Shown: in pieces, positions 19,730-39,782 of the stretch | Layout of the letters: each line of letters starts with the position of its first letter | How positions within the stretch are numbered: the first letter of the stretch is position 1 | The notes under the pieces: generated by a model | Database searches by the model: none | The model's input: the letters and a program-made list of their open reading frames with translations, nothing else | Told to the model about the DNA's origin: nothing | IMG/VR virus record: IMGVR_UViG_3300036852_000233 | Coordinates: 1-53,713 of that record | DNA: 53,713 nucleotides | Source of the DNA: a virus | Taxonomy: Duplodnaviria; Caudoviricetes | Direction: 5' to 3' (one strand) | Made by a program: the position numbers and the translations under genes

Positions 19730-19917
19730 TGAGCGACTGGAAGCCAGGGTTCCGCCACCAGGTCACTGAGGCCACCGGCTACGACCAGTGGTGGCGACTG
19801 TTGAACTGGCGCTGCGTCGACTGCGGACAGTGGTTCGTCGCGTGGCCATCCGACGATGAGGCCTGCCCAGGCCCACCAGCCGATACCGACCCGCTCCGTC
19901 AGGAGGTCGGCCGGTGA
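19726..19917 (+). CDS. Small Zn-finger protein, paralog of 8379-8537
   Basis: W.PGFRHQV...WRCVDCGQ.F..WP.DDEACPGP. Confidence 0.65.
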   Translation: MMSDWKPGFRHQVTEATGYDQWWRLLNWRCVDCGQWFVAWPSDDEACPGPPADTDPLRQEVGR

Positions 19918-21039: not shown

Positions 21040-21227
21040 ACGAGCAGCAAGGACCACCCGCCTTCAGCGCCGCGGACATGCCCATCCAGGATGAAGGCTG
21101 GCACCTATCGACACGCTATGAGGTGCTCGAACGTTGGCTGGAATCGGCGAAGGTGCGGCAGGTCAGGGTGCGGGACATTGTGACCGGGCACACCATCAGC
21201 CGGACGGACTTCTATGAGGGACCATGA
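21036..21227 (+). CDS. Hypothetical protein
   Basis: GGAGG RBS; ATGA coupling. Confidence 0.6.
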   Translation: MNEQQGPPAFSAADMPIQDEGWHLSTRYEVLERWLESAKVRQVRVRDIVTGHTISRTDFYEGP

Positions 21228-21285
21228 GCGAGCAGGTCAGGATCTACCGGGTGTTCTGCGAGAGGCAGGCCGGAGGTGAATCGTG

Positions 21286-21308
21286 TTGTCACACCCTCGC
21301 TGTACGAT
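21286..21308 (+). promoter_or_regulatory. PafBC/RecA-NDp-type promoter driving cassette A
   Basis: TTGTCA-cac-N8-TACGAT; same spacing in cassette B. Confidence 0.6.
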
Positions 21309-21314
21309 GCAGCT

Positions 21315-21482
21315 GTCCCGCTCGACAACCAAGATCGGGGCGATGCCGCCGGGCAGGCGGTGTACCGCGCGGGCAGGCCCTTGACCGGGCCGAGTCCCCG
21401 CCGAGAGGCGGGAGGCGGTTCCGCGAACCACCCGGACAGGCAACCGGGAATCCCCGCCCTTCTAGGGCAGGGAGGATGTCAA
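21315..21482 (+). ncRNA. TnpB omega-RNA-like scaffold A (IS200/IS605 right-end derived)
   Basis: Ends GGAATCCCCGCCCTTCTAGGGCAGGGAGGATGTCAA; hairpins shared with 36324-36477. Confidence 0.7.
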
Positions 21483-21632
21483 TATCTGCTGGTGTGCCTA
21501 GAGTGCAGCGAAGGCTCCGATGCGCTCATTCTGCCGTTCGACAGTGCAGAGGCGCGGGGGAAGTGGGCGGCCGCGCATACCAAAGAGACTGGGCACGACC
21601 GCTGGTACGTGGAAGACGAGGAACGATGAGCG

Positions 21633-21740
21633 ATGAAACGTCTTCAGATCGTCGCTACGCAGTATTGCCCGTGCTGCCGCCGCGACCATGACGTGTACGG
21701 GTTCGTGGTCGTGGGCAGTTACGTGATCCGCTCGACCTGA
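21633..21740 (+). CDS. Small peptide with CPCC motif (35 aa)
   Basis: MKRLQIVATQYCPCCRRDH...; precedes terminator. Confidence 0.35.
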   Translation: MKRLQIVATQYCPCCRRDHDVYGFVVVGSYVIRST

Positions 21741-21752
21741 CCCTAGACGCCA

Positions 21753-21792
21753 AGATGCCGCCACGTCCTTGGGGAGGAACGTGGCGGCATCT
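21753..21792. terminator. Long-stem hairpin between convergent operons
   Basis: AGATGCCGCCACGT...ACGTGGCGGCATCT, 14-bp perfect stem. Confidence 0.75.
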
Positions 21793-21933
21793 GTATGGTC
21801 CAGCCATCGCAATAGCGGGAGTCTAGCAGGCGGTCCGGACAGACCATTCGGCCCCCTACCGCCGGCCGGACGGTCTGCGGGGGCCGAATCGTGGTCCGAC
21901 ACTTCTACGGCGTGCCGGTACCGTACCGGGAGT

Positions 21934-22197
21934 CTATCCCGTCGGTCGGCGTGGCTGGGGTTGTGGCCGCTCGTCGGCGATCCGGCTCGGCGGCGGCGGC
22001 TCGGCACGCTCGGCCCGTGGGGGCGGCACCGACTGGACGTTGCGAACCCCGAATACCCCGAGGGCGGTCGCCGCGCCGATCACCACCGGCGCCCACCGCT
22101 GCACCCCCTCCGGGGTACCGGGGGGCAGCTGGGTCGCCAGGACCGCAGCCAGGCCGATGATGGCGACGATCGCCTTGCGTGCACCAGCGACGTTCAT
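21934..22197 (-). CDS. Holin-like protein (2 TM)
   Basis: ARKAIVAIIG...IGAATALGVFGVRN; in lysis cassette. Confidence 0.75.
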   Translation of the reverse strand: MNVAGARKAIVAIIGLAAVLATQLPPGTPEGVQRWAPVVIGAATALGVFGVRNVQSVPPPRAERAEPPPPSRIADERPQPQPRRPTG

Positions 22198-22346
22198 GGT
22201 TGCCTCCTTGGCCAGGGAATGGCGACCGCCAGGGCAAAGTGCGCCGCCCAACAGGCAAGGGCGAGCAGGAAGATGTCGACCTGGCCGAGGTGATCGATCC
22301 CGAACGCGTCGAGCAGCAGCAACGCTGCGGCGATGAGCGCGAGCAT
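22194..22346 (-). CDS. Small 2-TM membrane protein (50 aa, not in ORF track)
   Basis: MLALIAAALLLLDAFG...; AGGAGG RBS; ATGA overlap. Confidence 0.65.
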   Translation of the reverse strand: MLALIAAALLLLDAFGIDHLGQVDIFLLALACWAAHFALAVAIPWPRRQP

Positions 22347-22354
22347 GGCGCCTC

Positions 22355-22816
22355 CTACCAATGCAACCAGAAGTGGATGATCTCGTCCTGCGCGACCGTG
22401 AGCGGCAGCGGGTCCTTCGTCCGGCAGACTGCGGCGTGGAGGCGATTCTCCAGGCCGTCTTTGCGCTGCTGGTCACGGTCGTTGAGCTGCGGCCAGATGT
22501 TCTTGGCGCCGTTGCCGCCGCCGAGCTCCAGCGGCAGAAGGTGATCCCACTCGGCGACCTTCTGGCTGGCCGGGTAGCCGTATGCCTTGAGGACGGCGGC
22601 CTTCTGGGCGGCGGTCAGGCTGCGACGGTGCTTGCTTGCCCACCCGGCCGTGCACACGTCCGCGCGGCTGGTGGTTGCCACGACCCCGGGGGTGATGGTC
22701 GGTTTGGGCTGGCCGAGGGTACTGAGCGTGGTGGTCGTGGATATTGGCTGCTGGTGGGAGGTGCAGCCGGCCAGGAGTGCCAACGCCAACACGAGCAGCA
22801 GGACGCGGCGGGTCAC
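22355..22816 (-). CDS. Lipoprotein with HNH-like nuclease domain
   Basis: Lipobox LLAGC; EWDHLLPLELGG.N...NIWPQ...KD.LEN.LH. Confidence 0.72.
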   Translation of the reverse strand: MTRRVLLLVLALALLAGCTSHQQPISTTTTLSTLGQPKPTITPGVVATTSRADVCTAGWASKHRRSLTAAQKAAVLKAYGYPASQKVAEWDHLLPLELGGGNGAKNIWPQLNDRDQQRKDGLENRLHAAVCRTKDPLPLTVAQDEIIHFWLHW

Positions 22817-23013
22817 GCCATCTCCAACTCCTCGACCGCATGGGGGGACATGTTGCCTTGGGCTTCACCTTCGCTGGAATCCCAGATCACGAACGCCACA
22901 CCGTCGACGACGCGGTCGATCGTTCCGGCCGGTGAGGTGAACCCGAACCGGGCGTTGATGGTGGTCATCGGATCGTACTGCGCCTTCCAGCGGACCCGGT
23001 CCCCGGCGTTCAC
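22813..23013 (-). CDS. Small SH3-like hypothetical protein
   Basis: GDRVRW...GTI...V.WD. Confidence 0.55.
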   Translation of the reverse strand: MNAGDRVRWKAQYDPMTTINARFGFTSPAGTIDRVVDGVAFVIWDSSEGEAQGNMSPHAVEELEMA

Positions 23014-23201
23014 CAGTCCACCTGCTTCGGGTCGTGCCAGTCGGTGATGTGGGCATGCTCGCAGCAGCGGTAGATATGGCCAGTCTTGCCACTGCCACGC
23101 CGGAGGAAGATGACCCGGTCATCTTTGCCACACACGTCGCAGGTGACGATGCCGCAGCCGACCGCCTTCCACTTCGGCTCAACGAACTTCGCGGCGGTCA
23201 T
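23010..23201 (-). CDS. Small Cys-rich protein
   Basis: AGGAGG RBS; CDVCG...CCEH. Confidence 0.5.
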   Translation of the reverse strand: MTAAKFVEPKWKAVGCGIVTCDVCGKDDRVIFLRRGSGKTGHIYRCCEHAHITDWHDPKQVDW

Positions 23202-23328
23202 GACAGTCGTGCCTCCTGATTCCAGCAGACCCATGAGGTGGTCCCGGTCCCCCACGACAGTGGCAGACCAACCGGCCACTCCTCCCCGTCGGCCACGGCG
23301 CCCTCGTCCGGGTCGGATGCGCGGTCGT

Positions 23329-23601
23329 TCATGCCCATAGCACCCCAGAGCTCTGGCAGGACTGGCATGTCTCCGGACTGGTACCCGCACCCCACCCGCC
23401 CGTGTAGAAGCCAGCGGGAACGTGGCCGCGGCCCTCGCAGACCGGGCAGCGGTAGGGGCGGGTCTGCGGTGTGGCAATCGCCTGATACATCGGATGCTGC
23501 CAGTCGCCCATGTCGAGCAGCATGGGCCGCTTGCAGACGTGGCTCGGCCCTGAGGAGGGCGGGAGCGGCTCCCCGCAGGAGCAGACACCAGGCGAAGTCA
23601 T
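23329..23601 (-). CDS. Small DnaJ-type Zn-finger protein
   Basis: CPVCEGRG...CQSCQSSG. Confidence 0.6.
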   Translation of the reverse strand: MTSPGVCSCGEPLPPSSGPSHVCKRPMLLDMGDWQHPMYQAIATPQTRPYRCPVCEGRGHVPAGFYTGGWGAGTSPETCQSCQSSGVLWA

Positions 23602-24491
23602 ACCGTCGCCTTCGGCCCAAACTGAACGGTGACGACACCGCCCGGGTCGGTGGTGACGCCGACGATCTCGAGCTGCCCGGCGACCAGCGCCGCCAGCGTG
23701 GCCGGATCGACGACCTGACCGACCTTGCTGGCCAGCGTGTCGAGGCGGGTAGAGATGTCGGACAGGCCAGCGGCGAGGTCCTGGCGGGTCCGCTGCAGGT
23801 TGTCTGGATGGGTGTCCTTGGTCGGGTCAGTGGTCTCGTCCCCGCGGATCACCACCAGCAGGCCCTGCTGCACCGCGGCGAACTTGGCGTCCAGGTAGGT
23901 CCTTGTAGCGTCATCGAGCACGGTGAGGTCTCCTTCCATGTCCCAAAGCCGGGTGGAATCGGCCACCAGTGACGCGTCCCAAGGTTGGCCGAGGGTGGTG
24001 TCCCCGCCGTACTGGGTGGCCGCCGACCCCGCGTTCAGATGCGGCTCGTTGGTCCACTGCGCATCCCAGTACCCACCGCTCGGCTTAGGGTTCTGGAGGA
24101 CGGTCCGGCGGGTGCCGTACACCATCACCTTCCAGCCGGCATCCATGACCGCCCGGTCGAAGGCGGCCAGGTAGCCCGGGTCGATGCGGGTCTCGTAGTC
24201 CAACGCTAGCGTGGTGCCGCGGGGGACCTCGTGGCGGACCAACCAGGTGATCGCCGAATGCGCGTCAGCCAGCGGGTCACCGCCGGTCGAGCGGACGAAG
24301 ATCGGCAACCTGTAGCGGGCCGCCTGGCGGGACCACTCCGCGTCGGTCCATACGTGGGGCGTGTTCCCGCCGATATACCCGGCGACCGCCTCCCACTTCG
24401 GTGGCGAGGTCGGCGGGAACGCCGCGTCGAACATCCGTCGCAAGGCCATAGGCTCCCCATACGTGTCGTGGTAGATGTCCGAGTAGGTCAT
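23598..24491 (-). CDS. Endolysin, GH25/DUF1906-like glycoside hydrolase
   Basis: MFDAA, AGYIGG, ALDYET, MVYG, YWDAQW, ATQY...D.S; in lysis cassette. Confidence 0.75.
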   Translation of the reverse strand: MTYSDIYHDTYGEPMALRRMFDAAFPPTSPPKWEAVAGYIGGNTPHVWTDAEWSRQAARYRLPIFVRSTGGDPLADAHSAITWLVRHEVPRGTTLALDYETRIDPGYLAAFDRAVMDAGWKVMVYGTRRTVLQNPKPSGGYWDAQWTNEPHLNAGSAATQYGGDTTLGQPWDASLVADSTRLWDMEGDLTVLDDATRTYLDAKFAAVQQGLLVVIRGDETTDPTKDTHPDNLQRTRQDLAAGLSDISTRLDTLASKVGQVVDPATLAALVAGQLEIVGVTTDPGGVVTVQFGPKATV

Positions 24492-24503
24492 CGGCGGTCC
24501 AGG

Positions 24504-24914
24504 TTAGTGCGGCAGGCAGACCGGATGCTGCGTTGTACTCGGGTGCACCGTGCTCTTGGGCGTCTGGCACGTCGTGCTCGTGACCGGCAAGGTAGTGCTG
24601 GTCGCCACGGTCGTGGCTGGCCCAGTCGTCGGTGGTGGCATCACCACGATGATCCCCGCCGGCCCCGCCGGCCCGGGCGGTCCCGGAACGCCTGGTGGCC
24701 CTGGAACGCCGATGAGTCCGGCCGTCCCCGTCGTTGAGGACGGGGAGGTGCTCGGCGGTACCGACGGGGGCCGACCGGACGTGGGTGGCCGGGTGGTGAC
24801 CGGCGGCAGGGTCGTCGAGGTCGGGATGGTCGGCTCGAACACCTGCGAGCTGACCGTGACCGCGGCGATGAACGCGGCGGTGGCGACTAGGCCGAGGATC
24901 ACCGACCATCTCAT
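24504..24914 (-). CDS. Membrane-anchored collagen-like Pro/Thr-rich protein
   Basis: N-terminal TM; GVPGPPGVPGPPGPAGPAG. Confidence 0.65.
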   Translation of the reverse strand: MRWSVILGLVATAAFIAAVTVSSQVFEPTIPTSTTLPPVTTRPPTSGRPPSVPPSTSPSSTTGTAGLIGVPGPPGVPGPPGPAGPAGIIVVMPPPTTGPATTVATSTTLPVTSTTCQTPKSTVHPSTTQHPVCLPH

Positions 24915-25267
24915 GGGGGCTCCCCATTAGGAGTCGCAATGCCCTCGCGGTGTAACGCGTCCTCGAGCTGGCGGATCCACCGTCGCAGCGCCTGCTCCCG
25001 GACCCGTGCGGCCTCCACGTCAGCCTCAAGGGCGGCGACCCGCCGGTTGCAATTCTCGATCCGCCTCTGCGCCTCATCGATGCCAGCCTGATAGAGCCCC
25101 TTCGCCTGGTCGAACGCCTCACGGACCTCATCTTTGCTGGCCTTCTTGGCGGCGTCCTTGCGGATCTGCTCGGCCTGCTTGCGGTTGGCGGTGCCAAGCT
25201 GCCACACCAGGACCGAGCTGAGCGCCGCTGCGAGTGTCGGCAGGAGGATCCCGAGGAGGCCGAGCAT
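24911..25267 (-). CDS. Membrane protein with coiled coil (lysis-associated)
   Basis: One TM followed by heptad repeats. Confidence 0.7.
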   Translation of the reverse strand: MLGLLGILLPTLAAALSSVLVWQLGTANRKQAEQIRKDAAKKASKDEVREAFDQAKGLYQAGIDEAQRRIENCNRRVAALEADVEAARVREQALRRWIRQLEDALHREGIATPNGEPP

Positions 25268-25268
25268 G

Positions 25269-25733
25269 CTAGTCCTGCCGGTAGGGGATGCCGCGTTGCG
25301 CGGCCACCACGAGAATACACAGGCAGATCCACTGGCCCGCGGCACGGACGATCAGCACATGCGCGTCCGGCCAGGCCGCCAGCGTCAGGATCGCCAGGAG
25401 GATCTTGAGGAGCCACGCGGCAGTGAACGCCGCACGGTCGTCATCCACCCATACTTGCCAGCCACACAGTGCTCCGACCAGGGCGAACAGGATCGCCCAC
25501 AAAAGCAGCGGATGGGTGGCGCTGAAGCGTGCGCCGAACCCGACGATCGCGCTGGATGCGGGCGCGGCCGCCAGTAGCCCTGCGGCCCGACGGTCCCATA
25601 GGCCCCATGCCCAGAAGAGGTCCAACGTAGCGAGGCCGGAGAGGAACAGGCCGCGGTAGCCGACCCGGTGGGACAGCCGATGAACCACCACCGCGAGGCG
25701 GTGGTCGGCGTCGAGCAGCTGGGCGCGGATCAC
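25269..25733 (-). CDS. Multi-TM membrane protein (lysis-associated)
   Basis: Four hydrophobic segments; RVGYRGLFL. Confidence 0.7.
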   Translation of the reverse strand: MIRAQLLDADHRLAVVVHRLSHRVGYRGLFLSGLATLDLFWAWGLWDRRAAGLLAAAPASSAIVGFGARFSATHPLLLWAILFALVGALCGWQVWVDDDRAAFTAAWLLKILLAILTLAAWPDAHVLIVRAAGQWICLCILVVAAQRGIPYRQD

Positions 25734-26056
25734 GCCAGGCACACGTAGACGTAGTTGACGGCGGTGGCGGAGGACACCCCGCCCCATCGTGCCCGGAACG
25801 TGGTGGAGCCGTAGGTGTCGGTGCCGTACACCCCGGTCGGACCGCCGCCAAGCCCCTGCCCCGACCAGAAGCAGATGACCACGCTGGGGGTGAACCCGGC
25901 ACCATGGGTGATCGTCAGGTAGCCACTGGCGTCGGTCGTGCCCGACCCCGACCCGATGTGCAGGGTGCGGCTCGAGCCGGGAGCGGCCTGCACCACCAGC
26001 GTGTTGAGGTCCGAAGCGGTCAAAATGTCTCCGCTTGACCAGGTCTTTCTCGCGAT
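25730..26056 (-). CDS. Small minor tail protein, apparent ATC start
   Basis: AGGAGG-N9-ATC then ARKTWSSGDILTASDLN; ITHGAGFTP. Confidence 0.7.
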   Translation of the reverse strand: MARKTWSSGDILTASDLNTLVVQAAPGSSRTLHIGSGSGTTDASGYLTITHGAGFTPSVVICFWSGQGLGGGPTGVYGTDTYGSTTFRARWGGVSSATAVNYVYVCLA

Positions 26057-26069
26057 GGTGATCGTCCTC

Positions 26070-27374
26070 CTACGCCAGCGTCCCGGTGTTGAGTTTCGAG
26101 GTATTCAGCTGGAAGGGCTTGAAACTGTCGATGTTGCGGGTGTCGAACCCGATCTCCCAGTAGTCCTGCGTGATGTCGTGGTTCAGCGACTGGATGATGA
26201 CCTGCACGTCCAGGGTGTTCGGACCGTAGTCGCGGACAACCCGAATCCGGTCGAGGTAGGTGAGGCCGAGCAGGGTCGTCCACATCCCCTGCGTTTCTGC
26301 GTGGATGGTGACGTGGGTGACCCGGACGTTGGGGGTTTTGGACCGGCCGACGATCCAGTTCCCGATCGACAGAGCATCCGAGTCGACCCGCAGTAGCGTC
26401 CCCGCGGTCCCCGAGAACGTCCGGATCCCGTAGGCGGTCTGGGAGGTGACGTCGTCGGCTTGCTGTTCGATGCCGCCGTTGCGGGTGATCAGCGCCCGGT
26501 TGGCGATCGTGTCCCGCTGCTTGGACACAGTCACCTCGAGCATGTCCACGTCGGTGCCGACGTCGGAGATGGTCGCGCGGACGGTCTGCGACCGGTGCGC
26601 CAGGTAGGGGTGTAGGCGGTCGTAGAACACCACCGCACCGTTCCCGTCGACGGCGAGGAAGCCGAGTTCGGTGGCGACCGCGTCGTTCACCATCTGCAAC
26701 GCCGACCCCGCATCGCCCAGGACGGTCTGCTGGCAGGTGGACAGGCCCGTGTCGATCTTGCGGAGGGTGGTCGGCCAGGCGGCGCCGTCGAGGATCCGGT
26801 TGATCCGGGCGCCGGTGGTCTCCCCATCCGGGTAGGGAAACCCCGACCGCAACACCGCGCTGGCCAGCACCTCCAGCCCGTCGGTGCATGCCAGCGTGAC
26901 GGTGGGGTCGAACCCGGCGTCGAGGGTGATCGAGTCGGTGAACCCGCGGAACAGCGGGTAGGTGACGCCCTGCCAGATCGCCTTGACCCACACGGCCACG
27001 CCGACGTCGAGCTGCCCGTACCAGGGGCTAGCCGGGTTGAGCGGGTCGTAGGTCCCGGCGGTGTTGTCCAGGTAAACCTGGCAGGTTCCGGGGGAGGCGG
27101 CCTCGAGCTCGCCGGCCTGGCCACGCTGGAAGCTGACCCGCTGCACGTCGGCGGTGACATCAACGAACCCGACCGCGCCGAGCTGCCCGGTCCCAAGCGC
27201 GGAGGAGTCGAGGACGAAGTAGCCGCCAGCGGGGTCGATGGTGGTGGTCCCGCCGAAGGCGACCTCGACGATGATCTGGGGCGCGTTGACTCCGTCGAGG
27301 GAGTAGATCGCGCCGACCTGGGGGCCGAGCGTCCCGTAAACATCAGAATAGACATCGTGGTAGACATCAGGCAC
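26070..27374 (-). CDS. Minor tail (baseplate hub-like) protein
   Basis: DVT..V....RG, LDN..G.YDP.N, TGARINRILD, DDVTSQTAYG. Confidence 0.8.
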   Translation of the reverse strand: MPDVYHDVYSDVYGTLGPQVGAIYSLDGVNAPQIIVEVAFGGTTTIDPAGGYFVLDSSALGTGQLGAVGFVDVTADVQRVSFQRGQAGELEAASPGTCQVYLDNTAGTYDPLNPASPWYGQLDVGVAVWVKAIWQGVTYPLFRGFTDSITLDAGFDPTVTLACTDGLEVLASAVLRSGFPYPDGETTGARINRILDGAAWPTTLRKIDTGLSTCQQTVLGDAGSALQMVNDAVATELGFLAVDGNGAVVFYDRLHPYLAHRSQTVRATISDVGTDVDMLEVTVSKQRDTIANRALITRNGGIEQQADDVTSQTAYGIRTFSGTAGTLLRVDSDALSIGNWIVGRSKTPNVRVTHVTIHAETQGMWTTLLGLTYLDRIRVVRDYGPNTLDVQVIIQSLNHDITQDYWEIGFDTRNIDSFKPFQLNTSKLNTGTLA

Positions 27375-27390
27375 GGCGTATCCTCAGCGG

Positions 27391-27699
27391 ATGAACGATG
27401 CGCAGCGACCCTTCGGCTTCACTGTCAAAGCAGTGCGCTCCCGGTACGGTCCGGAGAAGCAAACGAACCAGTGGGGCGTCATCACCTACGTAGAGCAGGC
27501 GGTAGACCAGCCGTACTGGCGGGTCTACCTGCCGCACTAGTGCGACGAATGGCAGATCACCGACGATGAGGGCTACGACTCCACTGGCAGCATCGTGCAT
27601 GGATCGAGGCCGGCTGCCGCTATTGCCGAACTGGAGCGGTTCATCGCCGAGGCACAGCAGGCCCTAGAAGCACTTCGCGCAGGCCAAGAGTTCGGTTAG
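27391..27699 (+). pseudogene. Antisense accessory gene with an in-frame TAG (27538-27540)
   Basis: MNDAQ...WRVYLPH*CDEWQI...AELERFIAEAQQALEAL; frame open on both sides; TATCCT just upstream (leaderless-type). Confidence 0.6.
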
Positions 27700-30044
27700 T
27701 TGTGGGTGGACATGAACCCGAACGACTGGCCGCTGGACACCGCCACCGTGCTCTTGATCGCCACCGTCCACCCGATCCCCAAGTAGCTGGTCGCTGAGGC
27801 GGTGTAGGTTTTGGTGCCGTAGGTACCGGCCGCGTGGGTGGTGGCGTCGTCGGTGACGACGCTGGCGACCCGCCCGTCCGAGGTCCCGGAAGGGAACGCT
27901 ACGGCGCGTTGCGCCTCCCCACCGGGCAGCGTCCATGAACTCGTGAGCCCGCCAGGGTTGTCGCGGGTGAACGCGGCGGAGATGACAAGGTCGCTTGAGC
28001 CGGTGGTGGTCGCGTTTGGGGTGACGACGGTGGTGGAGTCGGTGTTCTTGGTGGATGACTGGTCGACGTCGACGAGGGCGACCTGGTCGGTGCCGGAGTA
28101 GGCGACCAGGTCGATCGACCCGTGCGCGTTCACCGAGTTACCTGAGCCGTCGGTGGTGTTCAGGGCGATGCTGCTGTTGGGGTCGCCAGCAGCGGCGGTC
28201 TTACGGTACAGGCGGCTCACCAGCTCGGCGGCGCCAGCAGCGAGCAGCCGCGAGTCGAACGCCACCCATCCGGTCGGGTCGGTCAGCACCGCGGAGGTCC
28301 CGGAAGGGCCCATCCACGTGTCGGTGGTCAGACCCATGTCGTCCATGTACAGGTCGTAGGTTTGCGCGACCGAGCTGGACAGCCCGAAGTTGTAGGAGAC
28401 CCCGGCGGCGGTCTGGGTGAACGCGGTCGAGTCGACCGGGCCCTCGTCGACAGTCGTCTCGGCTGCCCCACCCGCGTTGGTGTTCTCGAAGATCTTGACT
28501 GTGACCGTGGTCGTCGACCCGTTCCAGACGTACTTCCATTCGACCCGGTTCCACACGTTCGCAGCCGGGGTGATCGTGGAGGTGTAGCGGGTCGCGCCAG
28601 CGGCGATATCGCGGATGATCACCTTCCCGGCGGTGTCCAACCCGATACCCCAGTTACTCCCGGTGGTGGGGTTCTGCTGCATCAACCGGGTGATCTGGGC
28701 GGGCAGCGCGGTCCGGTAGTAGTACAGCCGGCCGTAGTAGGTCGACGGGGAACCGAAGCTGGCCTGCCAGGTCGTCCGCGAGGTCGTTTGCGCCGCCACG
28801 CTGTGATGGATCGACGTAGTCCCAGCGTGTGCCTGCGTGCTCGAGTAGACCGGGATCGGGGAACCGATCGAATCCCACGGGTTCGACCCCACCGAGTTCG
28901 AGTTGCCGGTGGTGACGTTGCCGAGGTTGGTACCCTCCGCGGCGTTGCGCAGGCCGATACGGGTGCAGGTGTGGAACAGCAGCATCCCATCCCCGGCCTG
29001 CACCGTCGATGGCACCGTCAGCGTCTGACTGGCCGAATTCGAGAACGACTTGCTGGCACCATCCCGGAACGAACCCGTGCTGATCGGGGGGCCGGTCGGG
29101 CTCAGGTCCGGGTTGAAGTAGTCCGCCTTCGCCAGATCCTGGAATCCCTTCAGCGCGTTGGCGGAGGTGTTCATGCATTCGCTGACCCCGGAGACGCCGT
29201 TGAAGTAGACGATCGCCTTGACCTGCGGGTAGCTGGCCTGAAGGGTGGTGCGGACCTGGTCGTAGAACCCCTGCTTGGTGTTCGGATAGCTGCCGGTGGT
29301 CTCCTTCTTCCCCCACTCCGCCATCATCAGCGGCTTGGTGTGGCTGCCGCTTTTGGTGACGGTGGCCCAGTTGAGCATCGGATACTTCGTCTGGATGACG
29401 TAGTCCAAGTCCTCGCTGGTCGAGGCGCTGCCGTAGGGATCCCACCCGATCCAGTCCACGTAGGCGTCGCCGGGGTACAGCGCGTTCATCCGGGTTGGGA
29501 ACTGGGTGAGGTACCCGCTCGGCTTGAACACCCACACAACGTTGGTGGCGCCTTGCGCGACGAACACGTCGTGGAGGTGCTGCGCCGCCGACGCGTACTC
29601 CGCGTCGGTCCCGTACGTCCCACCATCCGCACTCGAGCTGGCGTTCATCTCGTTGTGGAACGCCAGGAAGAACGTGACGCCCCAGTCCCGCATCAACTTG
29701 GCCTGCGGGATCACGATCGAGTTGTCGTAGGAGCCGGCGGCGATGTCGGGCCACCTGTACTGCGTCGATGATCCGAAGATCCGCGGAGTCCAATGGATCA
29801 GCAGCAGCCGACCCTCAGCTGACATCGCCTGCTCATCAGCGGTCGGGAACGCCGTCGCGTAGTCGTTCCAGTCGTGATAGGCCGACGCGATGTTGAGGAC
29901 GCCGTTGGTGGTGGGGGTCCGGTTGGCCGTGGTCTCGAAGTTGCGAACCCGGGTGGCGTAGCTGGTCGCCGAATCACACGACGTCGACGGGTACACCCCG
30001 AACAGGCAGCCGACGTTGGGGACCAGGATGGAGCTGAGGCTCAC
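27696..30044 (-). CDS. Virion protein: GH26-like glycoside hydrolase plus beta-sandwich domains
   Basis: FHNEMN, YPGDAYVDWIGWDPY, KPLMMAEWG. Confidence 0.75.
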   Translation of the reverse strand: MSLSSILVPNVGCLFGVYPSTSCDSATSYATRVRNFETTANRTPTTNGVLNIASAYHDWNDYATAFPTADEQAMSAEGRLLLIHWTPRIFGSSTQYRWPDIAAGSYDNSIVIPQAKLMRDWGVTFFLAFHNEMNASSSADGGTYGTDAEYASAAQHLHDVFVAQGATNVVWVFKPSGYLTQFPTRMNALYPGDAYVDWIGWDPYGSASTSEDLDYVIQTKYPMLNWATVTKSGSHTKPLMMAEWGKKETTGSYPNTKQGFYDQVRTTLQASYPQVKAIVYFNGVSGVSECMNTSANALKGFQDLAKADYFNPDLSPTGPPISTGSFRDGASKSFSNSASQTLTVPSTVQAGDGMLLFHTCTRIGLRNAAEGTNLGNVTTGNSNSVGSNPWDSIGSPIPVYSSTQAHAGTTSIHHSVAAQTTSRTTWQASFGSPSTYYGRLYYYRTALPAQITRLMQQNPTTGSNWGIGLDTAGKVIIRDIAAGATRYTSTITPAANVWNRVEWKYVWNGSTTTVTVKIFENTNAGGAAETTVDEGPVDSTAFTQTAAGVSYNFGLSSSVAQTYDLYMDDMGLTTDTWMGPSGTSAVLTDPTGWVAFDSRLLAAGAAELVSRLYRKTAAAGDPNSSIALNTTDGSGNSVNAHGSIDLVAYSGTDQVALVDVDQSSTKNTDSTTVVTPNATTTGSSDLVISAAFTRDNPGGLTSSWTLPGGEAQRAVAFPSGTSDGRVASVVTDDATTHAAGTYGTKTYTASATSYLGIGWTVAIKSTVAVSSGQSFGFMSTHN

Positions 30045-30724
30045 GCCGGCACCGTCAGCTGCACGAGCAGCAGGATCTGCAACGGCCCACCCGACGATCC
30101 CTGCGTGACGTGGGTGGTGATGACGCTGGTCCCACCCGTCAGGGAGGTGGAGGAGAACACCGCCGCGATCGTGTTAACGGTCTGGCCGACCACGATCTCC
30201 GGCTGCGTCGACAGCCGAGTAGTGCCGCCGACCTTCAGATCCACCTTGGTGTTCAAACCGGTGGTGGCGACGTTCTTCAACCAGCAGGTGTAGCTGTAGA
30301 GGTCGGCGTTGAACGGCACGACCAGGTTGTACTGGATGTCCAGTGGACTGGTGACCGTGTCGACGGTCCACAGGAACGGCAGGATCGGCCGGTCGGAGCG
30401 GTGCTTGTGGTCCTCCCGCGCGTAGTTGGTGCCGGTCCCCACCGCTGACGCGGTGGTGTAGTCCATCGCGATGACCGTCGAGGCGGGCGTCCCGGCGGGT
30501 ACCGCCGCCCACGCGGTGGTGCCATCGCCCTGCTTGACTGGCACCCACCCGGTGGTCGCGGCAGCGGCAGTCGAGGTGCCGATGCCGAGTTTGGCTTCCA
30601 GCGCACGGATCGCGCCGTGGGCGTTCGGGTGGTGGGTGTCGTGCCCGGTGGTCACCCCATCCACGACAAGGTCGTCGGGGATGGTGGTGTCGTCGTCGAG
30701 CGCGGCAGGGTACTTGGTCGCCAC
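30041..30724 (-). CDS. Minor tail/fiber protein
   Basis: YPAALD, AIRALEAKLG, YAREDHKH. Confidence 0.7.
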   Translation of the reverse strand: MATKYPAALDDDTTIPDDLVVDGVTTGHDTHHPNAHGAIRALEAKLGIGTSTAAAATTGWVPVKQGDGTTAWAAVPAGTPASTVIAMDYTTASAVGTGTNYAREDHKHRSDRPILPFLWTVDTVTSPLDIQYNLVVPFNADLYSYTCWLKNVATTGLNTKVDLKVGGTTRLSTQPEIVVGQTVNTIAAVFSSTSLTGGTSVITTHVTQGSSGGPLQILLLVQLTVPA

Positions 30725-30733
30725 AGACGGCTC

Positions 30734-33420
30734 CTAAAGCTGGTTCGCGATGTCTTTCTTGCCACGACTCCGCAGGTCCTCGCGGATGCTTTGGAGCAGT
30801 TGCCGAGCGGCAGTACGGTCAGTGCCGACCGCGGTGATGTTGAAGATGAACGTGTTACCGCCGCCGTAGCGGCGCCCCGGGGTCACGCTGACGGTCTCCG
30901 GACCTGCCTCCCCAACCCCGATCAGGGTCGGGCGGGAGAACACGGTCTCCGGCAGCCCACCGGCGTACCAGTGGGGCGAGCGGGCCTGCCATGCCGCCCA
31001 CGCGGTCGCCGGATTGCCGTACACCATCTTGATGTAGTTCAGACCGGCGGCGATCTGGTCCTGCGGGTTGGAGGTCTTGTGGAACCCGGTCATCGCCCAT
31101 GTCGAGTCGAGGAACTGCGCGATCCCGTAGGCGCTGGAGGTGGGGTTCTGCGCGGCCGGGTTCCAGCCCGACTCGTGCTGCCACAGTTGGCGGAGCGCGT
31201 CCCACTGGGCGCCGACCCAGCCCATCATCGCGGCCATGCTCTTGCCGAGGTCGACGATGGGTCCGACCGCGCCGGTGGTGGTGAACCCCGCCCAGATCTG
31301 CGACCACACGTCCTTGAGCGGCCCGGCCACGTCGGAGGCGAGCCCCCGGAAGAACCCGGCCACGTCGGCGGCACCGTGGGCGAGGCCCTTGAGGATGCCG
31401 CCCATCACGTGCTTGCCAGCCGAGATGGCCCAGTCCGGTGGGCTGTGGATCCCGAGCGCCCCCAGGATCTTGGAGGGCAGACCTTTGAACCAGCCGACCA
31501 CGGTGTTCCAGACCGCTTTCACGCCGTTGAACATCCCGCTGATGATGTCCTTGCCCTTTTGGAGCAGCCACGTCCCCGCACCAGCGAGCGCGGTTTTGAT
31601 GCGGCCGGGAAGGTCCCGGAACCACTGGACCAGTTGCCCCCAGCGGGACAGGATCAGCGGGATCGGGCCGAGGAACCCGTCTTTGGCGGCGCGGACGACC
31701 TGATCGGCGAGCCAGTGCGCCGCCGCGACAAGGGCATGCCACGCGTCGTTGATCCCATGCCACGTCTTCAGAACCCACTCGCGGATGTCCTGCCAGGCCT
31801 TGACGAAGAAGTCCCGCATGTTCAGGACGGCGTGGACGAGGTTGGCGGCGGCATGCTCGAGCGCCGCCCACGTCCCTTTCACGATGTTGCGGAACGTCTC
31901 CGAGGTCTTCCACAAATGCACCAGCCAGGCCGCCAAGGCGACCAGCGCGACGATCACGATCCCGATCGGGTTGGCGGCCAAGACCACGTTCAGGACGCCT
32001 TGGGCGACCGCGAACAGCTTGGCCCCGACCGCCACCTTCACCAGCGTCGGCGCGAGCAGGATCAGCAGCGGGGTGAGCGCCAGCAGGATCGGGACCAACC
32101 CTTGCACGAGCACTGACGCGATCTTGGCGGCGGCGGGGATGATCGGCAGGAACGCCAGCGCTGCGGTCACCACCACCGGGATGAGGGGAGCCAGCGCGAT
32201 CAGGAGCTGCCCGACCGCTTTGGCGACCTGCACCAGCGACGGGGCGGCCTGCTTGAACGCCACGGCCAGCGCGTTCCCGACCTGGTTGGCGACCTGGATG
32301 ATGATCGGCAGGATCACCTTCAACGCTGGCATGAGCCCGCCGAGCAGTGCCGTGACAACGGGGATGATCGCGCTGAGCAGGTTGTTGGCGACCTTGCTGA
32401 TCCACACGGCCAGGTAGACCAGCGATGGCAGCAGCGGCTGGATCCCCTTCAGGAGCTGCCCGACGACCTGGACGAGGCCGACGAACGCGGGGACCAGCTG
32501 CGGCAACACCTTCGCAAGCGCGCCCGCCAGCGCCGCGACGACGCTGGACAGGACCGGCAGCAACGCCCGCAGGATCGCCGCCAAGGCGGGGAACAGCGCG
32601 CCGGCGAGCCGGCCGATCGCGGGGAGCATCTGGTTGATCGCCTTACCGACCAGCGGCAGGACCTTCATCAGGCCCGAGTCCAACGCGGTGCCGACCCCGA
32701 GGATCGCCTGCTGGAACGCCGGCATGATCTGCTGGCCGAGGCGGACCAGCGACCCGATGATGCTGCCCACGATCGGGAGCAGCGACCCGATGGTCTGCAA
32801 GAGGGTCCCGAACGCCTTGGTATTCCCTGACAGCGGCGACAGGATCATCTGCAACGCCGCAGCGAGGTTGCCGACCAGGTCAGGGATCTGGTTGAAGAAC
32901 TCCCGCACGATCGGGAGGACCTGCTTGATGAGCGGTTGGAACTCGGTGATCACATTGAACACTGCGCTGACCAAGCCCTTGCCGAACACGTCCACCAGCG
33001 GTGCGACAGACTTGAAGAACCCCTGCAAGACGGGCTGCATCGTCTTCAGGCTCTCGCGGATGTACTTCACCAGCCCGAGCATCGTGTCCTGCACCGGCTT
33101 GGCGTCGGCGGCAAGTTGGTTCTTCAGGCCCTGCCCGAGGTCCTTGAACTCCTTACGGACGTTCTTGTTCATCAATGCCGCAGCAACGCCCACGCCAGCA
33201 AATGCCGCGCCCAAACCAACGCCCAAAGTCCCCGCAAGTCCAACGCTCGCGACCCCAGCGGCACCAGCAGCCGCGACGAATTTTAGAGTTCCGGTGGACA
33301 GGACCTGGAGATCTTTTGCTGTTCCAGCGGCGGCGACACCTACCCCAGAGATGGTGCGGGAGGCGTTGATGTCCACGCCGAACAGCTTAAAAAGGTCAGA
33401 CTGGCCGTGTTACCGGGCAT
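30734..33420 (-). CDS. Tape measure protein with lytic-transglycosylase domain; 5' end (ATG 33420) out of frame with main ORF (GTG 33376)
   Basis: Long Ala/Leu-rich amphipathic ORF, ANPIG motif, HESGWNP.A.N..S.AYGIAQ. Confidence 0.9.
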
Positions 33421-33449
33421 CTGACTGCACCACCTCCTTTCTCGAAGCT

Positions 33450-33983
33450 CTAGATGAACGACTGCTGCCCAGGACTAGGACGTCCCCTGCGTCTCAATCC
33501 CGCTGCTGCTAACTTCCTTTGGCGCTCCGCACGGCACTGGCGACAGGCATTATGTCCCGTCTTTGGGTGGACGTAGATATTTGCAGGAATCCAAGGATGC
33601 CCATTACGACAAGCGCCATTCATCTTGCGCGTCGCACGCGCACGCGCAGTATTTTCTCCACGCGTGACAATTTCCATATGTTGCGGGTTAACGCAGCAGC
33701 GGACACGACACAGATGATCCAGCGTCAAACCATCAGGGATGGGGCCTTTCAGCAACTCCCAGATAAGGCGATGCGCGGCTCGGTTCTTTCGGCTGCCTGG
33801 AGGCCACGTGGCGGCCCCGTAACCAGTCACGGCAACATGGCCGATCCAGAGCCAGCATCCTGTCGTTTCTTCAATGCGGATCTTAACCGTCAGCTTGAAC
33901 GGCAGGGCAGACAGGTCCACAAGGGACCACCCCCTTGATGTGAGTTCCTTGATGTCGTCAGATAAACGGGGAGCCCCAGCCAT
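33450..33983 (-). CDS. Free-standing HNH homing endonuclease
   Basis: CWLW.G...GYG...AHR..WE...LDHLC....CVNP.H; C.NGH...C..C; low-GC3 codons. Confidence 0.9.
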   Translation of the reverse strand: MAGAPRLSDDIKELTSRGWSLVDLSALPFKLTVKIRIEETTGCWLWIGHVAVTGYGAATWPPGSRKNRAAHRLIWELLKGPIPDGLTLDHLCRVRCCVNPQHMEIVTRGENTARARATRKMNGACRNGHPWIPANIYVHPKTGHNACRQCRAERQRKLAAAGLRRRGRPSPGQQSFI

Positions 33984-34003
33984 CAAGGGAACTGGGGCTC
34001 CCC
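33968..34003 (-). promoter_or_regulatory. 12-bp hairpin sequestering the HNH RBS and start codon
   Basis: GGGGAGCCCCAG-N12-CTGGGGCTCCCC; ATG in loop. Confidence 0.6.
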
Positions 34004-34028
34004 TACCCGCCGACGAAGCGGGCTTCTT

Positions 34029-34544
34029 TCAGCCGAGATGAAGTTTCCCAGCAATCACCTTGGCTTTTATATCGTCGAGCACCTTGCGGACCTCGTGTTC
34101 CATCTCCGGCCGTTTCTCCCGCATGGTGGAGTCGAAGTACGGGTAGCCCCGCTGGAACACCACCGGCTTGTGCCCATACGTCGGGTGTTTCCAGCCGCCC
34201 CGGTCGATGTCTTTGGGGAGGTCCCGGGAGTTGCGGCCGCGGAGCCCGGCGGTGAACTGTTTGACCGCCACCTCCCGCGCAGTCACGCTCACCTTGATGT
34301 CGAGCGCCAGCGTGGACCGCAACCCAACCCCGGTCCCTGCCCTGCTCTTGCGGTAGTGCCGGCCTGCGCCGGTGGCGGTGTACTTGGCGGTCGCGGGCAT
34401 CGTGCGGATCTTCACCCGAGCGGCGTCCGCGCCGATCTTGGCGGCCTTCCGCAGCCGCTTCCGGAACGCGCGGCGGATCTCCGGGCGCATCCCCCGGGTC
34501 GCGCGGGTCAACTGAACGTAGTCAGCAACGTCGATCTTCGGCAT
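34029..34544 (-). CDS. HK97 gp10-like tail/neck protein
   Basis: Basic; G.W.HP.YG...QRG.PYF; before TMP. Confidence 0.6.
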   Translation of the reverse strand: MPKIDVADYVQLTRATRGMRPEIRRAFRKRLRKAAKIGADAARVKIRTMPATAKYTATGAGRHYRKSRAGTGVGLRSTLALDIKVSVTAREVAVKQFTAGLRGRNSRDLPKDIDRGGWKHPTYGHKPVVFQRGYPYFDSTMREKRPEMEHEVRKVLDDIKAKVIAGKLHLG

Positions 34545-35133
34545 CAGCCCTGCCTCTTGGCTTCCTCGTCAGCACGCTTCTGGCGGCCCTCGTCGATCGC
34601 CTCGGTCACGAACCGGAGCCGTTCCGCCTGCCGCCAGCCGAGCTCGTCGACCATGGTGGGGGTCCACCGGAACCGGTCAGCCCACCACAGGTCATCCAGG
34701 GCGGCATGCCAGACCGGATCCAGCCGCTGTGCGAGCTGCGGTTTCAGCCCGTACTGGCCGATGTTGACGAGGGTCCCGCGGGCAAAGGGGATGGTGCCTG
34801 CCCGTTGGCCTCGCCACCGCCAAGGATCTCCGCCAGCGCCGGGGTGACCACCGCCGCCAGCGGCTTGTGATACTTGACGGGGAGGTCCTGCACCGACGCC
34901 AAGCTCACCTCGAGCGGCTGGCCATCGTCGTTGGTCAAGGACCAGCGGCGCACGAACCGCACGATCAGCGCATCCTGCAGGGTGCCGATCCCGGACAGCC
35001 CCATCCCGGCACCGAACAGGTTGATGCCTTCGTCGTCGGCGGCTTTGAGCGCGAACCGGACGTCGCCGCGGCGCAGGTCGCCAATGTCGCGCAGATCGGC
35101 CGTGTGGCCGTCGGGGAGTTCGATGGTGGCCAT
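34544..35133 (-). CDS. Tail assembly chaperone G (35133-34744) / GT via -1 frameshift
   Basis: Slippery C-CCT-TTG (34783-34789) enters the frame encoding ADRFRWTPTMVDEL; between tail tube and TMP. Confidence 0.75.
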
Positions 35134-36278
35134 CAGAACGCCTGGTCCTGGGAGACGAGCCTGATCTGCACCGGAACACCCCCACCGTCGTCGTAGCACT
35201 CAAATCCGATACTCTCCGGAATCAAGTCAGGACCGCCAACCGCGAGGGGGTCAGTCTTGAATTTGACAAATGGGAGCACAAAGGACAAACGGTACGCGCC
35301 GGTGCCGGTGCTGCCGGCCGCGCCGTCGGCGCCGGAGCCGTTGATGCCGTGGGCGAAGTCAAGCTGCAACGACCGGGTCGCATTGGTGGAGAACAGGTCG
35401 TAGAACTCGGTGCGGTTGGTGAACTCGGCGTCCAGCGTGCCGGTGAGGGTGGGGATGCCGTTCTCAAGCTGTTCGCGCTTTATGCCGGCGTTGCCGAACC
35501 CGTACCGCTCGGAGGCGACCGGCCGGGCGGCGGTGAGGGTGAACCCCTTCACCACGTGGCTGACCGAGGCGGTGCCGGTCAGGGTGGTGTAGTTCCCGGT
35601 CCCGGTCCCGGTCCCACCAGTACCCGGCAGCGACCCGGTGCCCGCCTGGGTGCCGGTGCCGACCTGGAACAGGTAGGCGTCCACGAACGAGAAGATCTGC
35701 GACTGATAGGTGGATGCGGCGAACACGGGCTGGGTGATGGACCCGGTGGTGGTGCAGTTCATCCCGTCGGCGGTGAGCTTCAGCTGCGCGAGCGCACCGT
35801 CGGAGCAGGTGAACTCCCAGCCCGAGAACTTGAGGCCGGAGTAGCCGAACCGGATGGACGTGTAGGGGCTTGCGATCTGCGGGCGGCCGACCTCTGCGGT
35901 GAGTGACAGGCCGGCGGTCGTGCCGGGCTGGTGGACCTGCTGCCACGCGGAGGTGGCGCCGAGCTGCTGCGCCCCGGTCGCCGGTGACCCGAGGGCGTAG
36001 TGGAGCAGAAACCCCATGCCCTTCCCACCGGTCGCTGACACGCCCCGGTCGGCGAACTCGAAGACGAGGTCGCCGTTGACGTCGTAGCGGCTGATCGCGG
36101 TCCGCTGGCCACGCTTGAACGCCTGCCCCTGCTTCAACCCGGCCGAGTCGAGGTAGGTCGGGGTGAGCGCCAGCGACTCCGACAGGAACTCATACCAGGC
36201 GGTCGGCACCGCTTCGGTGCCTGGGGTACCTTCGACGCCGAACCCGAGACTGGCGCCAAGCCCGGATGCGTAGGGGAT
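35133..36278 (-). CDS. Major tail tube protein, apparent ATC start
   Basis: PYASGLGASLGFGVE..PGT...EF.SESL; GGAGG-N8-ATC. Confidence 0.82.
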   Translation of the reverse strand: MPYASGLGASLGFGVEGTPGTEAVPTAWYEFLSESLALTPTYLDSAGLKQGQAFKRGQRTAISRYDVNGDLVFEFADRGVSATGGKGMGFLLHYALGSPATGAQQLGATSAWQQVHQPGTTAGLSLTAEVGRPQIASPYTSIRFGYSGLKFSGWEFTCSDGALAQLKLTADGMNCTTTGSITQPVFAASTYQSQIFSFVDAYLFQVGTGTQAGTGSLPGTGGTGTGTGNYTTLTGTASVSHVVKGFTLTAARPVASERYGFGNAGIKREQLENGIPTLTGTLDAEFTNRTEFYDLFSTNATRSLQLDFAHGINGSGADGAAGSTGTGAYRLSFVLPFVKFKTDPLAVGGPDLIPESIGFECYDDGGGVPVQIRLVSQDQAF

Positions 36279-36295
36279 TGGACTCACCTCCGTAC

Positions 36296-36317
36296 TGTCA
36301 CACGCATGGGATACGAT
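36296..36317 (+). promoter_or_regulatory. PafBC/RecA-NDp-type promoter driving cassette B
   Basis: TGTCA-cac-N8-TACGAT. Confidence 0.6.
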
Positions 36318-36323
36318 GATGTT

Positions 36324-36477
36324 GCGCTCGGCGATAACCAAGCTGGGACGCTCTGCCGCAGGACATGCGGTGAACAGCGCGGGCAGTCACTCCGGTGGCG
36401 AGGCATCAAGCCGGTTCCGCGAACCACCCGGAGAGACAACCGGGAACCCTTCGCCCGTAAGCGAAGGGGGATGTCAA
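36324..36477 (+). ncRNA. TnpB omega-RNA-like scaffold B
   Basis: GGTTCCGCGAACCACCCGGA...CAACCGGGAA-hairpin-GGATGTCAA shared with scaffold A. Confidence 0.7.
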
Positions 36478-36638
36478 TCCTTGTCCTTCGCCTTGGCGGC
36501 GGGCTTGTCGGTGACGGGCTGGAAATACTCAGCTGGCAGGTTGGTGCCGTCGGGGACCTCGACGACCTCGTCGGCGTCCACGTCCCGGCCGACCAGCGGG
36601 AAGCTGACGGGACCACCGCTCACGTTGCGTACCTTCAC
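36474..36638 (-). CDS. Small virion-associated protein (54 aa, not in ORF track)
   Basis: MKVRNVSGGPVSFPLVGRDVDADEVVEVPD...; AGGAGG RBS; its TGA is supplied by the cassette end. Confidence 0.7.
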   Translation of the reverse strand: MKVRNVSGGPVSFPLVGRDVDADEVVEVPDGTNLPAEYFQPVTDKPAAKAKDKD

Positions 36639-38027: not shown

Positions 38028-39782
38028 CTAGCTTGGCCCTCCTGCCGTGTCGGTCGCCGTGAGCGTCGCGGTCATCCCGCCCGTCGTGCTGAGCGCCGCA
38101 GCCGCCTCCGAGGTGGTCAGCGTTGCCGCCGCAGTCGCCACAGTCAGCGTGGCGGTCGCCTGATCCGCTGCGGTGAGAACACCGATCGTGAACGGGATCT
38201 GCGTGGCAGCCGTGAACGTGTCGACGCCGGCGGCCGTCTCAGTCAGCGTGACGAGCACGGCCGCGGCGAGGGTGTCTGCCGCTGCTGCCAGGTCGGCAAG
38301 GGAGACCTGGACTGTGACCGTGAAACTGTCGCTTGCGGTGCCCCCGTCGGCGAGAGTCTTGGGTTGACCGACTGCCACCGAGTCTGTGGCGGCTCCCACG
38401 TCGGCGAGGGGGATTGCCGCCGTGACCGCAAGGCTGTCGGCGGTAGTGCCCTGGTCGATCAGCGGCGTCTGGACGACGACGGCGAGGCTGTCGGTGGCGG
38501 ACCCGGAGTCGAACAGGGGGATCTGCTGGACACCCTGCGCGATGGAGATCGAGTCGGACCCGGTGCCCGAATCGTTGAGGGAGATCTGCGCTGCGACTGT
38601 GAGGGTATCGGCGGCGGCGCCGGCTTCCGCCAGCGGCACCGCGGCACTGACGGTCAGGGAGTCGGCAGCGGTGCCGGTGTCCGCTAGGGGTTTGGGGATC
38701 CCGACGTTGATCGAGTCGGCTGCGGATCCCGTGTCGGCCAGTGGGATCTGCGCGGCGACGGTGACCGAGTCCGACGCGGCGCCGACCTCGCCGAGCGGCA
38801 CGGCGGCAGTGACGGTGAGCGAGTCCGATCCGGTGCCGCTGTCGTTCAGCCCGACCGGGATCGAAACGGCGAGGCTGTCGGTTCCGGCGCCCACATCGGC
38901 CAGCGGGACCGCTGCGGCGACCGTGAGGCTGTCAGCTGCGGTGCCACTGTCCGATAGTGGTGCGGCGACGGTGACTGTGAAACTGTCGCTTGCGGCACCG
39001 GAGTCGTTGAGGGTGATCGCGGTCGCGCCGCCGCCGACCGGGCCGAGGTAGGCGCTGGTGGAGACGCCAATGTCGTCCAGGTAGTAGGTGACGTTGGCGA
39101 TGCCGGTGCCGGTCTGCCCGAACCGGACCCGGTCGATCGTCCCGCCCGTGTTCAGTGCAGTGTTGGTGATCGTCTCCAGCGGGGTGTTCGACTCGGGTGA
39201 GTCGAACAGCTTGCACTCCAACACCCCCGCAGCCGCATCGCCAGTGCAGAACGCCTCCACCCGGACCAGCTGATTGAGCGGGACCGAGTTGCCCATGGTC
39301 GCCACCGTCGACCCAGCCGAGTCGGTGGTGAGCAGCTTCCCCGTCGTGCTGATCTGCACCGACCCACGGACGTTCGAGACGTTGAGCCAACGGAACAGGC
39401 GGGTCTGCGTGCCCGGGTTGGCGGTCAGGTACAGGTAGGCGCGGAGCCACACCGTGCCGGTGGCGCCACCGAGCGCCGTGGACCACATGACGTAGGCTTC
39501 GCCGAGGGTCGCGCCGGTCTGGCACAGCATCCCCAGCGTGCCATGGCCGGGGTGGGCATTGGAGAAGTTCACCGCGCCGTCGCCGGCGCTTACGGTGACC
39601 TGGTCGAACTGGGTGTTCCCGACCCCTCCCGCATTGCTGGTCGAGATGGCGACACCGTTGGTGCCACCCTCAAAGTCGTTGGTGACGGTGACCGCAACAA
39701 GGCCTGCCGCAGGCTTGAGGATCCGTGACCCGCGGCGGATGATCCGGGCTGGGGGCTTGAGATATCCCCGGCGAGGTGGCAT
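38028..39782 (-). CDS. Virion fiber/decoration protein: lectin-like domain plus ~15 repeats of ~18 aa
   Basis: (P/S)LxDxGxxxDSLxV repeats; N-domain similar to part of 27696-30044. Confidence 0.7.
   Translation of the reverse strand: MPPRRGYLKPPARIIRRGSRILKPAAGLVAVTVTNDFEGGTNGVAISTSNAGGVGNTQFDQVTVSAGDGAVNFSNAHPGHGTLGMLCQTGATLGEAYVMWSTALGGATGTVWLRAYLYLTANPGTQTRLFRWLNVSNVRGSVQISTTGKLLTTDSAGSTVATMGNSVPLNQLVRVEAFCTGDAAAGVLECKLFDSPESNTPLETITNTALNTGGTIDRVRFGQTGTGIANVTYYLDDIGVSTSAYLGPVGGGATAITLNDSGAASDSFTVTVAAPLSDSGTAADSLTVAAAVPLADVGAGTDSLAVSIPVGLNDSGTGSDSLTVTAAVPLGEVGAASDSVTVAAQIPLADTGSAADSINVGIPKPLADTGTAADSLTVSAAVPLAEAGAAADTLTVAAQISLNDSGTGSDSISIAQGVQQIPLFDSGSATDSLAVVVQTPLIDQGTTADSLAVTAAIPLADVGAATDSVAVGQPKTLADGGTASDSFTVTVQVSLADLAAAADTLAAAVLVTLTETAAGVDTFTAATQIPFTIGVLTAADQATATLTVATAAATLTTSEAAAALSTTGGMTATLTATDTAGGPS

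Follow-up and report, generated by a model that had tools for sequence, protein, structure and literature searches.

Miniature IS605-type elements resembling standalone omega-RNA genes in a temperate soil phage

Two related cassettes in a phage genome

The IMG/VR record IMGVR_UViG_3300036852_000233 (Caudoviricetes), analyzed here over its whole length of 53,713 bases (the window), has direct terminal repeats and 67% G+C, encodes an integrase, an HK97-type capsid, a portal, and tail genes, and is a complete temperate soil phage. On its plus strand we observe two related cassettes, A (positions 21287 to 21482) and B (36296 to 36477), each shorter than 240 nucleotides (nt) and without a nuclease or transposase gene. 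In agreement with an earlier note on this DNA, no tnpB was found in the phage genome by Pfam (PF07282, no match) or by a profile of 120 TnpB proteins (best E value, 2.1); tnpA had no profile search. Judged by homology to tnpB loci, the cassettes are internally deleted IS605-family elements of tnpB ancestry. With moderate confidence, we consider that they belong to a small family of miniature nonautonomous IS605 elements, that is, standalone omega-RNA genes similar to palindrome-associated transposable elements (PATEs), whose likeliest function is trans-guided self-retention.

All parts of the cassettes lie on the plus strand. In A, a PafBC-type promoter motif (21286 to 21308; a TGTC element, a 10-nt gap after the first hexamer, and TACGAT) is followed by a hairpin whose loop reads AACCAA and which sits where transcription is predicted to start (21315 to 21341), by a putative omega-RNA scaffold (21345 to 21482, with the right-end hairpin at 21452 to 21472), and by a predicted guide (21483 to 21498). 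The corresponding parts of B are the promoter motif (36296 to 36317), the AACCAA hairpin (36324 to 36351), the scaffold (36355 to 36477), and the predicted guide (36478 to 36493). The block that A has in common with B is identical at 140 of 176 aligned positions over 202 columns, and the motifs previously listed as shared by both copies are all present in order. A pattern describing the full architecture, designed post hoc from the cassettes themselves, matches twice in the window (0.00 expected; 0 of 100 shuffles), and window scans returned no third copy. The promoter motif alone also matches twice, which is weakly above chance (0.45 expected; 7 of 100 shuffles reach two). Contigs from the probable source run (X1) span both cassettes with 0 differences and are not independent of the record. 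Among 4227 Rfam families, none matched at an E value of ≤1.

Right ends of tnpB origin

Both cassettes close with the right end of an IS200/IS605 element, as had been proposed for them: a guide tetramer (GAAT in A, GAAC in B) precedes a subterminal hairpin, and the cassette stops at TCAA, described as the IS608-type right cleavage site (PMC3201880). The tnpB ends of Streptomyces plasmids match this right end, and a soil metagenome fragment holding only the 3′ part of a tnpB (L081) shares further sequence with the cassettes, including AACCACCCGG and CCGGGAA. The 120 best longer homologues of L081 are InsQ-like TnpBs, of which 70 carry the tail motif AGHAV and 75 the tail motif xNREP; the cassettes match the codons of both motifs. 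Profiles built from tnpB 3′ ends, with the cassettes excluded, have no matches in the window other than A and B at an E value of ≤2, both when made from nine loci (E values, 2e-4 and 6e-3) and when made from 22 tnpB-type 3′ ends (1e-8 and 0.05). The claimed origin from a tnpB tail is thereby borne out. No longer homologue of the cassette read-through peptide was found, and the TnpB of PIS 136, used as a query, retrieved no viral loci.

A conserved omega-RNA fold with an altered core loop

With the ISDra2 omega-RNA structure (PMC10097598) as a template, we mapped four parts, all present in the cassettes: stem 1, stem 2, the terminal stem, and a pseudoknot that pairs the stem 1 loop with the 3′ end. 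In a small alignment of both cassettes with four tnpB loci (six sequences), on which the structure was drawn by the analyst, 96% of 108 cells are paired, compared with 31 to 48% in slid controls. Two-sided changes occur in 7 of 18 pairs, a count reached in 2 of 500 shuffles, and neither the number of paired cells nor the covariation score is reached in any of 500. The pseudoknot is fully paired in B and contains one G-U pair in A. The stems of the right hairpin differ in sequence between A and B with pairing retained, and so do those of the AACCAA-loop hairpin, which begins 7 bases past the −10 element in both copies (z scores, −2.5 in A and −2.3 in B) and appears in none of the full-length elements seen. 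The standalone RNA would be roughly 155 to 185 nt long and end in a flank-derived guide.

The loop flanking stem 2 departs from the usual GGAG/GAA and reads GCAG/GTT in both cassettes. Among 22 tnpB-type loci examined, 21 of which could be resolved (all but L036), 20 have GAA and 17 have GGA on the 5′ side, where the pairing assigned to L035 and L081 is faulty.

A promoter inherited from the parent element

PafBC binding sites have been described with the 22-nt consensus tGTCgg(N10)tA(N3)T (PMC8635444). The motifs of A and B fit this consensus and its geometry, as had been noted, with AC instead of the weakly conserved gg at positions 5 and 6. In full-length elements the same geometry occurs before tnpB: of 26 actinobacterial-type IS605 loci, chosen by homology and partly related (L021, L081, L084, and L090 were excluded, having no usable start), 11 carry the motif inside their left ends, at most 60 bases away from the first gene of the element and upstream of tnpB or tnpA (L020, L023, L045, L082, L085, L086, L087, and L092 to L095). 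In eight of them, exactly 6 bases separate the motif from the start codon, a placement that suits leaderless tnpB translation, and in 7 of the 11 loci a left-end hairpin follows 53 to 88 bases further upstream. The motif matches 14 times in total in the 133,628 bases scanned. Given how often the motif occurs ahead of the first gene in such loci, the promoter of the cassettes is, on this comparative evidence, the parent IS element's own and not an addition by the phage.

The sturdier result of this analysis, reached as a by-product, is the PafBC-type DNA-damage promoter that stands just before tnpB or tnpA in many actinobacterial IS605 elements. Our literature search found no paper linking PafBC to TnpB or IS605; nine transposases are reported to be induced by mitomycin C without RecA (PMC8151990). 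Such a promoter would make nuclease expression coincide with the use of repair templates. At four of the loci (L020:661, L082:270, L093:698, and L095:696), the TCAT just beyond the left-end region coincides with the annotated ATG of a divergent neighboring gene, and in L020 and L082 the element next carries CTCCTT, which would supply the ribosome-binding site of that gene.

Insertion sites and junctions

Cassette A splits a small phage gene of the phrog_27770 family (21224 to 21629, plus strand), in which the frame opened by a GTG at 21276 runs across the cassette into the 3′ part; its predicted guide is coding sequence of this gene. Cassette B lies antisense between two minus-strand head-tail genes. 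The tail gene (phrog_290; 35133 to 36287) starts immediately to its left, and a small virion-region gene (36474 to 36638) now takes its stop codon from the right end of the cassette, whose predicted guide is antisense to the 3′ end of that gene.

Relatives of the gene to the right of A were examined in eight viral loci, none of which contains a cassette, and a relative from run X2 joins exactly at position 21483. For the gene to the right of B, three close relatives (of four loci) continue directly into the tail gene. On comparison with these relatives, A and B are insertions, and the right junction is the base after TCAA, without target duplication there, because the cassette-free relatives resume at that base. 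The earlier note had let the identity of the two copies run just past TCAA; the TCAA boundary stands, and the single shared T beyond it belongs to the flank, since empty sites in relatives begin with T. Each of the insertions leaves the interrupted or adjoining gene with an open frame or a stop, in A and B as well as in the third copy described below.

The left junction has three candidates in each cassette (after 21247, 21256, or 21292 in A; after 36287, 36295, or 36301 in B). Upstream of either promoter we found no IS605-type left-end hairpin, consistent with the absence of a left end remarked on before, and in similarity to known left ends, the sequence there does not exceed random phage DNA (P = 0.30 to 0.93). 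Candidate left-end remnants there, alike by eye, were discarded for lack of significance on this comparison. The AACCAA hairpin was also considered as a left end and rejected, the four bases preceding it being different in A and B. TCAC as a target-adjacent motif (TAM) would restore the frames yet leave about 15 residues at A that are found in no relative, and it was rejected as unproven. About 16 bases between B and the body of the tail gene (36279 to 36295), whose minus strand includes what looks like a strong ribosome-binding site, are absent from three relatives and may compensate for the insertion of B.

Other copies

A third copy, P0242, is known as protein only: a contig of 1456 bases encodes an 88-residue read-through peptide that is 67% identical in the same frame (E value, 3e-14) and is one of three matches besides self and a repetitive protein. 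Its homology runs from the promoter motif to the right end, its flanks are unrelated to those of A and B, and residues in its read-through frame match the same change in the core loop. Copies are thus found at several unrelated sites (A, B, and P0242), and comparison of P0242 with phages gave no useful match.

Exact cassette patterns returned nothing from viral, genome, and metagenome collections, which is weak evidence of absence since diverged members are missed by such patterns. Looser patterns gave 7, 8, and 17 matches in viral sequences, all attributed to chance by inspection and profile except for two of the 17, which are right ends in tandem and belong to an unrelated type. Of two further pattern scans, one yielded five matches, four of them unrelated IS605 right ends, and the other 10 matches, one of which (L081) is real. 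A blastn search of phages and plasmids found right-end matches only.

Several other arrangements were observed during these scans. A viral contig (L036:6850-7066) has a left-end-like hairpin and a canonical omega-RNA about 200 bases apart without tnpB, an ordinary PATE-like element, and one Streptomyces plasmid bears two partial right ends without tnpB (L021:1947-2053 and L026). A second IS605 right end stands in tandem downstream of the first in L033 (188-290), L057, and L065. In L034 (about 10020 to 10120), a tnpB tail fragment with its omega-RNA is immediately preceded by two repeats that we take to be CRISPR-like.

Relation to known elements

PATEs (defined in PMC3119063) resemble the cassettes in having no protein gene, an IS605 right-end palindrome, a TCAA end, and no target duplication seen, and often encode omega-RNAs requiring TnpB in trans, as described for Geobacillus (10.1101/2023.03.14.532601); such omega-RNA PATEs further share an origin by internal deletion with the cassettes, whose omega-RNA would likewise need TnpB in trans. 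However, PATEs have palindromes near both ends, whereas the cassettes have an ambiguous left junction and no left near-terminal palindrome related to the right one, the AACCAA hairpin being of another type. The standalone omega-RNAs of OMEGA systems are, like the cassettes, guide-RNA loci without effector or transposase and with a flank-derived guide. They have been shown to act in trans, with a biological role described as unknown (PMC10691335), and they share genomes with compatible effector loci; the cassettes, in contrast, are phage borne, and we found no compatible TnpB.

Closest in sequence architecture are tnpB-only elements of the InsQ/IS609-like group (IS1341 type; L081 and L092 to L095), which share with the cassettes the PafBC-type promoter, stem 1, pseudoknot, stem 2, and right end. 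L092 to L095 differ in having a full tnpB (L081 holds the 3′ part only), and L093 to L095 have a left-end hairpin after TCAT that the cassettes lack. The actinobacterial members of this group have the canonical GGAG/GAA core loop and no AACCAA hairpin, in contrast to the cassettes. Phage TldR guide systems and phage CRISPR mini-arrays are also phage-borne RNA guides. However, TldR loci encode their own protein and the mini-arrays carry acquired spacers, whereas the guides of the cassettes are adjacent flank only.

The suggestion that the cassettes form a new system does not hold, since trans-acting standalone omega-RNAs and omega-RNA PATEs, protein-less elements used in trans, have already been published. 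What sets the cassettes apart is the absence of a left-end hairpin, the promoter joined to the RNA via a new conserved hairpin, and the altered core loop. The view of them as promoter-driven guide-RNA genes of the phage also gives way, given the inherited promoter, to that of a transposed miniature element, because the TCAA junctions are precise and a third copy occurs at an unrelated site.

Possible function and alternatives

Homology shows internal deletion of the coding region from an actinobacterial InsQ-like tnpB element, an event that joined the parent's PafBC-type promoter to the parent's omega-RNA. A host TnpA acting in trans could then have inserted the mini-element at separate sites, as the exact TCAA junctions suggest, and loss of the left-end hairpin probably left the copies stuck. 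Upon DNA damage, the promoter would yield the RNA with its flank-derived guide end. A compatible host TnpB would load this RNA and cut the cassette-free site, which would be repaired from the filled copy, in line with published TnpB biology and with the retention model set out in 10.1101/2023.03.14.532601. Cutting of the empty site would favor retention or homing of the cassette; the benefit would be the element's own and any benefit to the phage incidental.

Several observations speak against self-retention by such miniature elements. The left-end hairpin is missing, and the upstream sequence has no significant similarity to known left ends. Because the core loop of both copies departs from GGA/GAA, an ordinary TnpB may be unable to load them. 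The bases 5′ of the empty sites are CTAC at B in three of three relatives and CTTC or GTTC at A in four of four relatives within three mismatches, so that the single TAM predicted by the earlier note for empty sites of both cassettes is not clearly seen, with three left-junction candidates for each cassette. Pattern scans of viral, genome, and metagenome collections returned no cognate full-length element, and the cognate TnpB with a matching scaffold that the note had also predicted did not emerge, as none of the TnpB loci found shares this core loop. The absent hairpin and the altered loop would also suit inert relics, that is, dead IS605 fragments tolerated since the host genes are spared, perhaps transcribed, and forming no working TnpB complex. 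The same is true of GAAC in B, which by the IS608 model should weaken TnpA cleavage (PMC3201880), and of 11 related phage records in which we found no copy, the best scores of 14 to 15 bits equaling the window background. However, the 5′ and right hairpins have diverged in sequence while keeping their pairing (a suggestive pattern from two DNA copies only), the pseudoknot of B is fully paired, and both promoter motifs are intact; we regard relics as a possible explanation but a distinctly less probable one than trans-guided self-retention.

Domesticated phage weapons, in which promoter and guide RNA are kept so that at induction related phages without a cassette are cut or silenced by the TnpB of the host, would fit the presence of two copies in one phage and the retention of promoter and RNA where both copies lost the left-end hairpin. 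Free-standing homing nucleases are described as giving phages such an edge, with homing between coinfecting phages (PMC13565253). Guide B matches the relative L010, which has no cassette, at 20 of 20 bases and the relative L011 at 15 of 16, and guide A matches the relative L003 at 15 of 16; the match to L010 leaves some room for the interphage competition proposed earlier. These matches favor neither competition nor selfish retention, because the guide of any IS605 insertion matches its own empty site; moreover, the cassettes are not conserved in relatives, the promoter derives from the parent IS, and no shared TAM or cognate TnpB was found. We therefore consider weapons unlikely. It seems similarly improbable to us that a family of RNA-only cassettes, fixed in actinobacterial phages by loss of the left end and transcribed upon damage, depends on a TnpB that the host would supply from an unsampled subclade with a different core loop, cutting cassette-free related phages in a form of protein-free homing and interphage competition. 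A regulatory role, with the altered scaffold binding host TnpB unproductively as a decoy or the transcript of B dampening the adjoining head-tail genes, would accord with the core-loop change common to A, B, and the read-through frame of P0242 and with the antisense orientation of B into virion genes. We think it very unlikely, as phages have no known need for blocking TnpB, the junction with the guide is exactly preserved, and no paper on such decoys was among those listed by our literature search.

If the RNAs of these putative self-retaining elements work, they would be natural minimal scaffolds of 123 to 138 nt with an unusual core, pointing to an undescribed TnpB subclade, and would allow a direct test of the role of standalone omega-RNAs.

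Host and other features of the phage

Of the 120 best capsid relatives listed, only one carries an organism name; it comes from Frankia, is 56% identical, and suggests an actinobacterial host. An integrase-based search of the genome collection found no host. The window also contains three DNA methyltransferase genes (6451 to 8013, 15756 to 17249, and 18108 to 18740), one with a fused ParB-like domain. An identical 26-base repeat at 8379 to 8404 and 8534 to 8559 has a 69-base inverted relative at 19806 to 19874, and these are probably shared ends of small paralogous genes. Finally, repeats with a 54-base period are observed at 38310 to 39014 within a long minus-strand gene.

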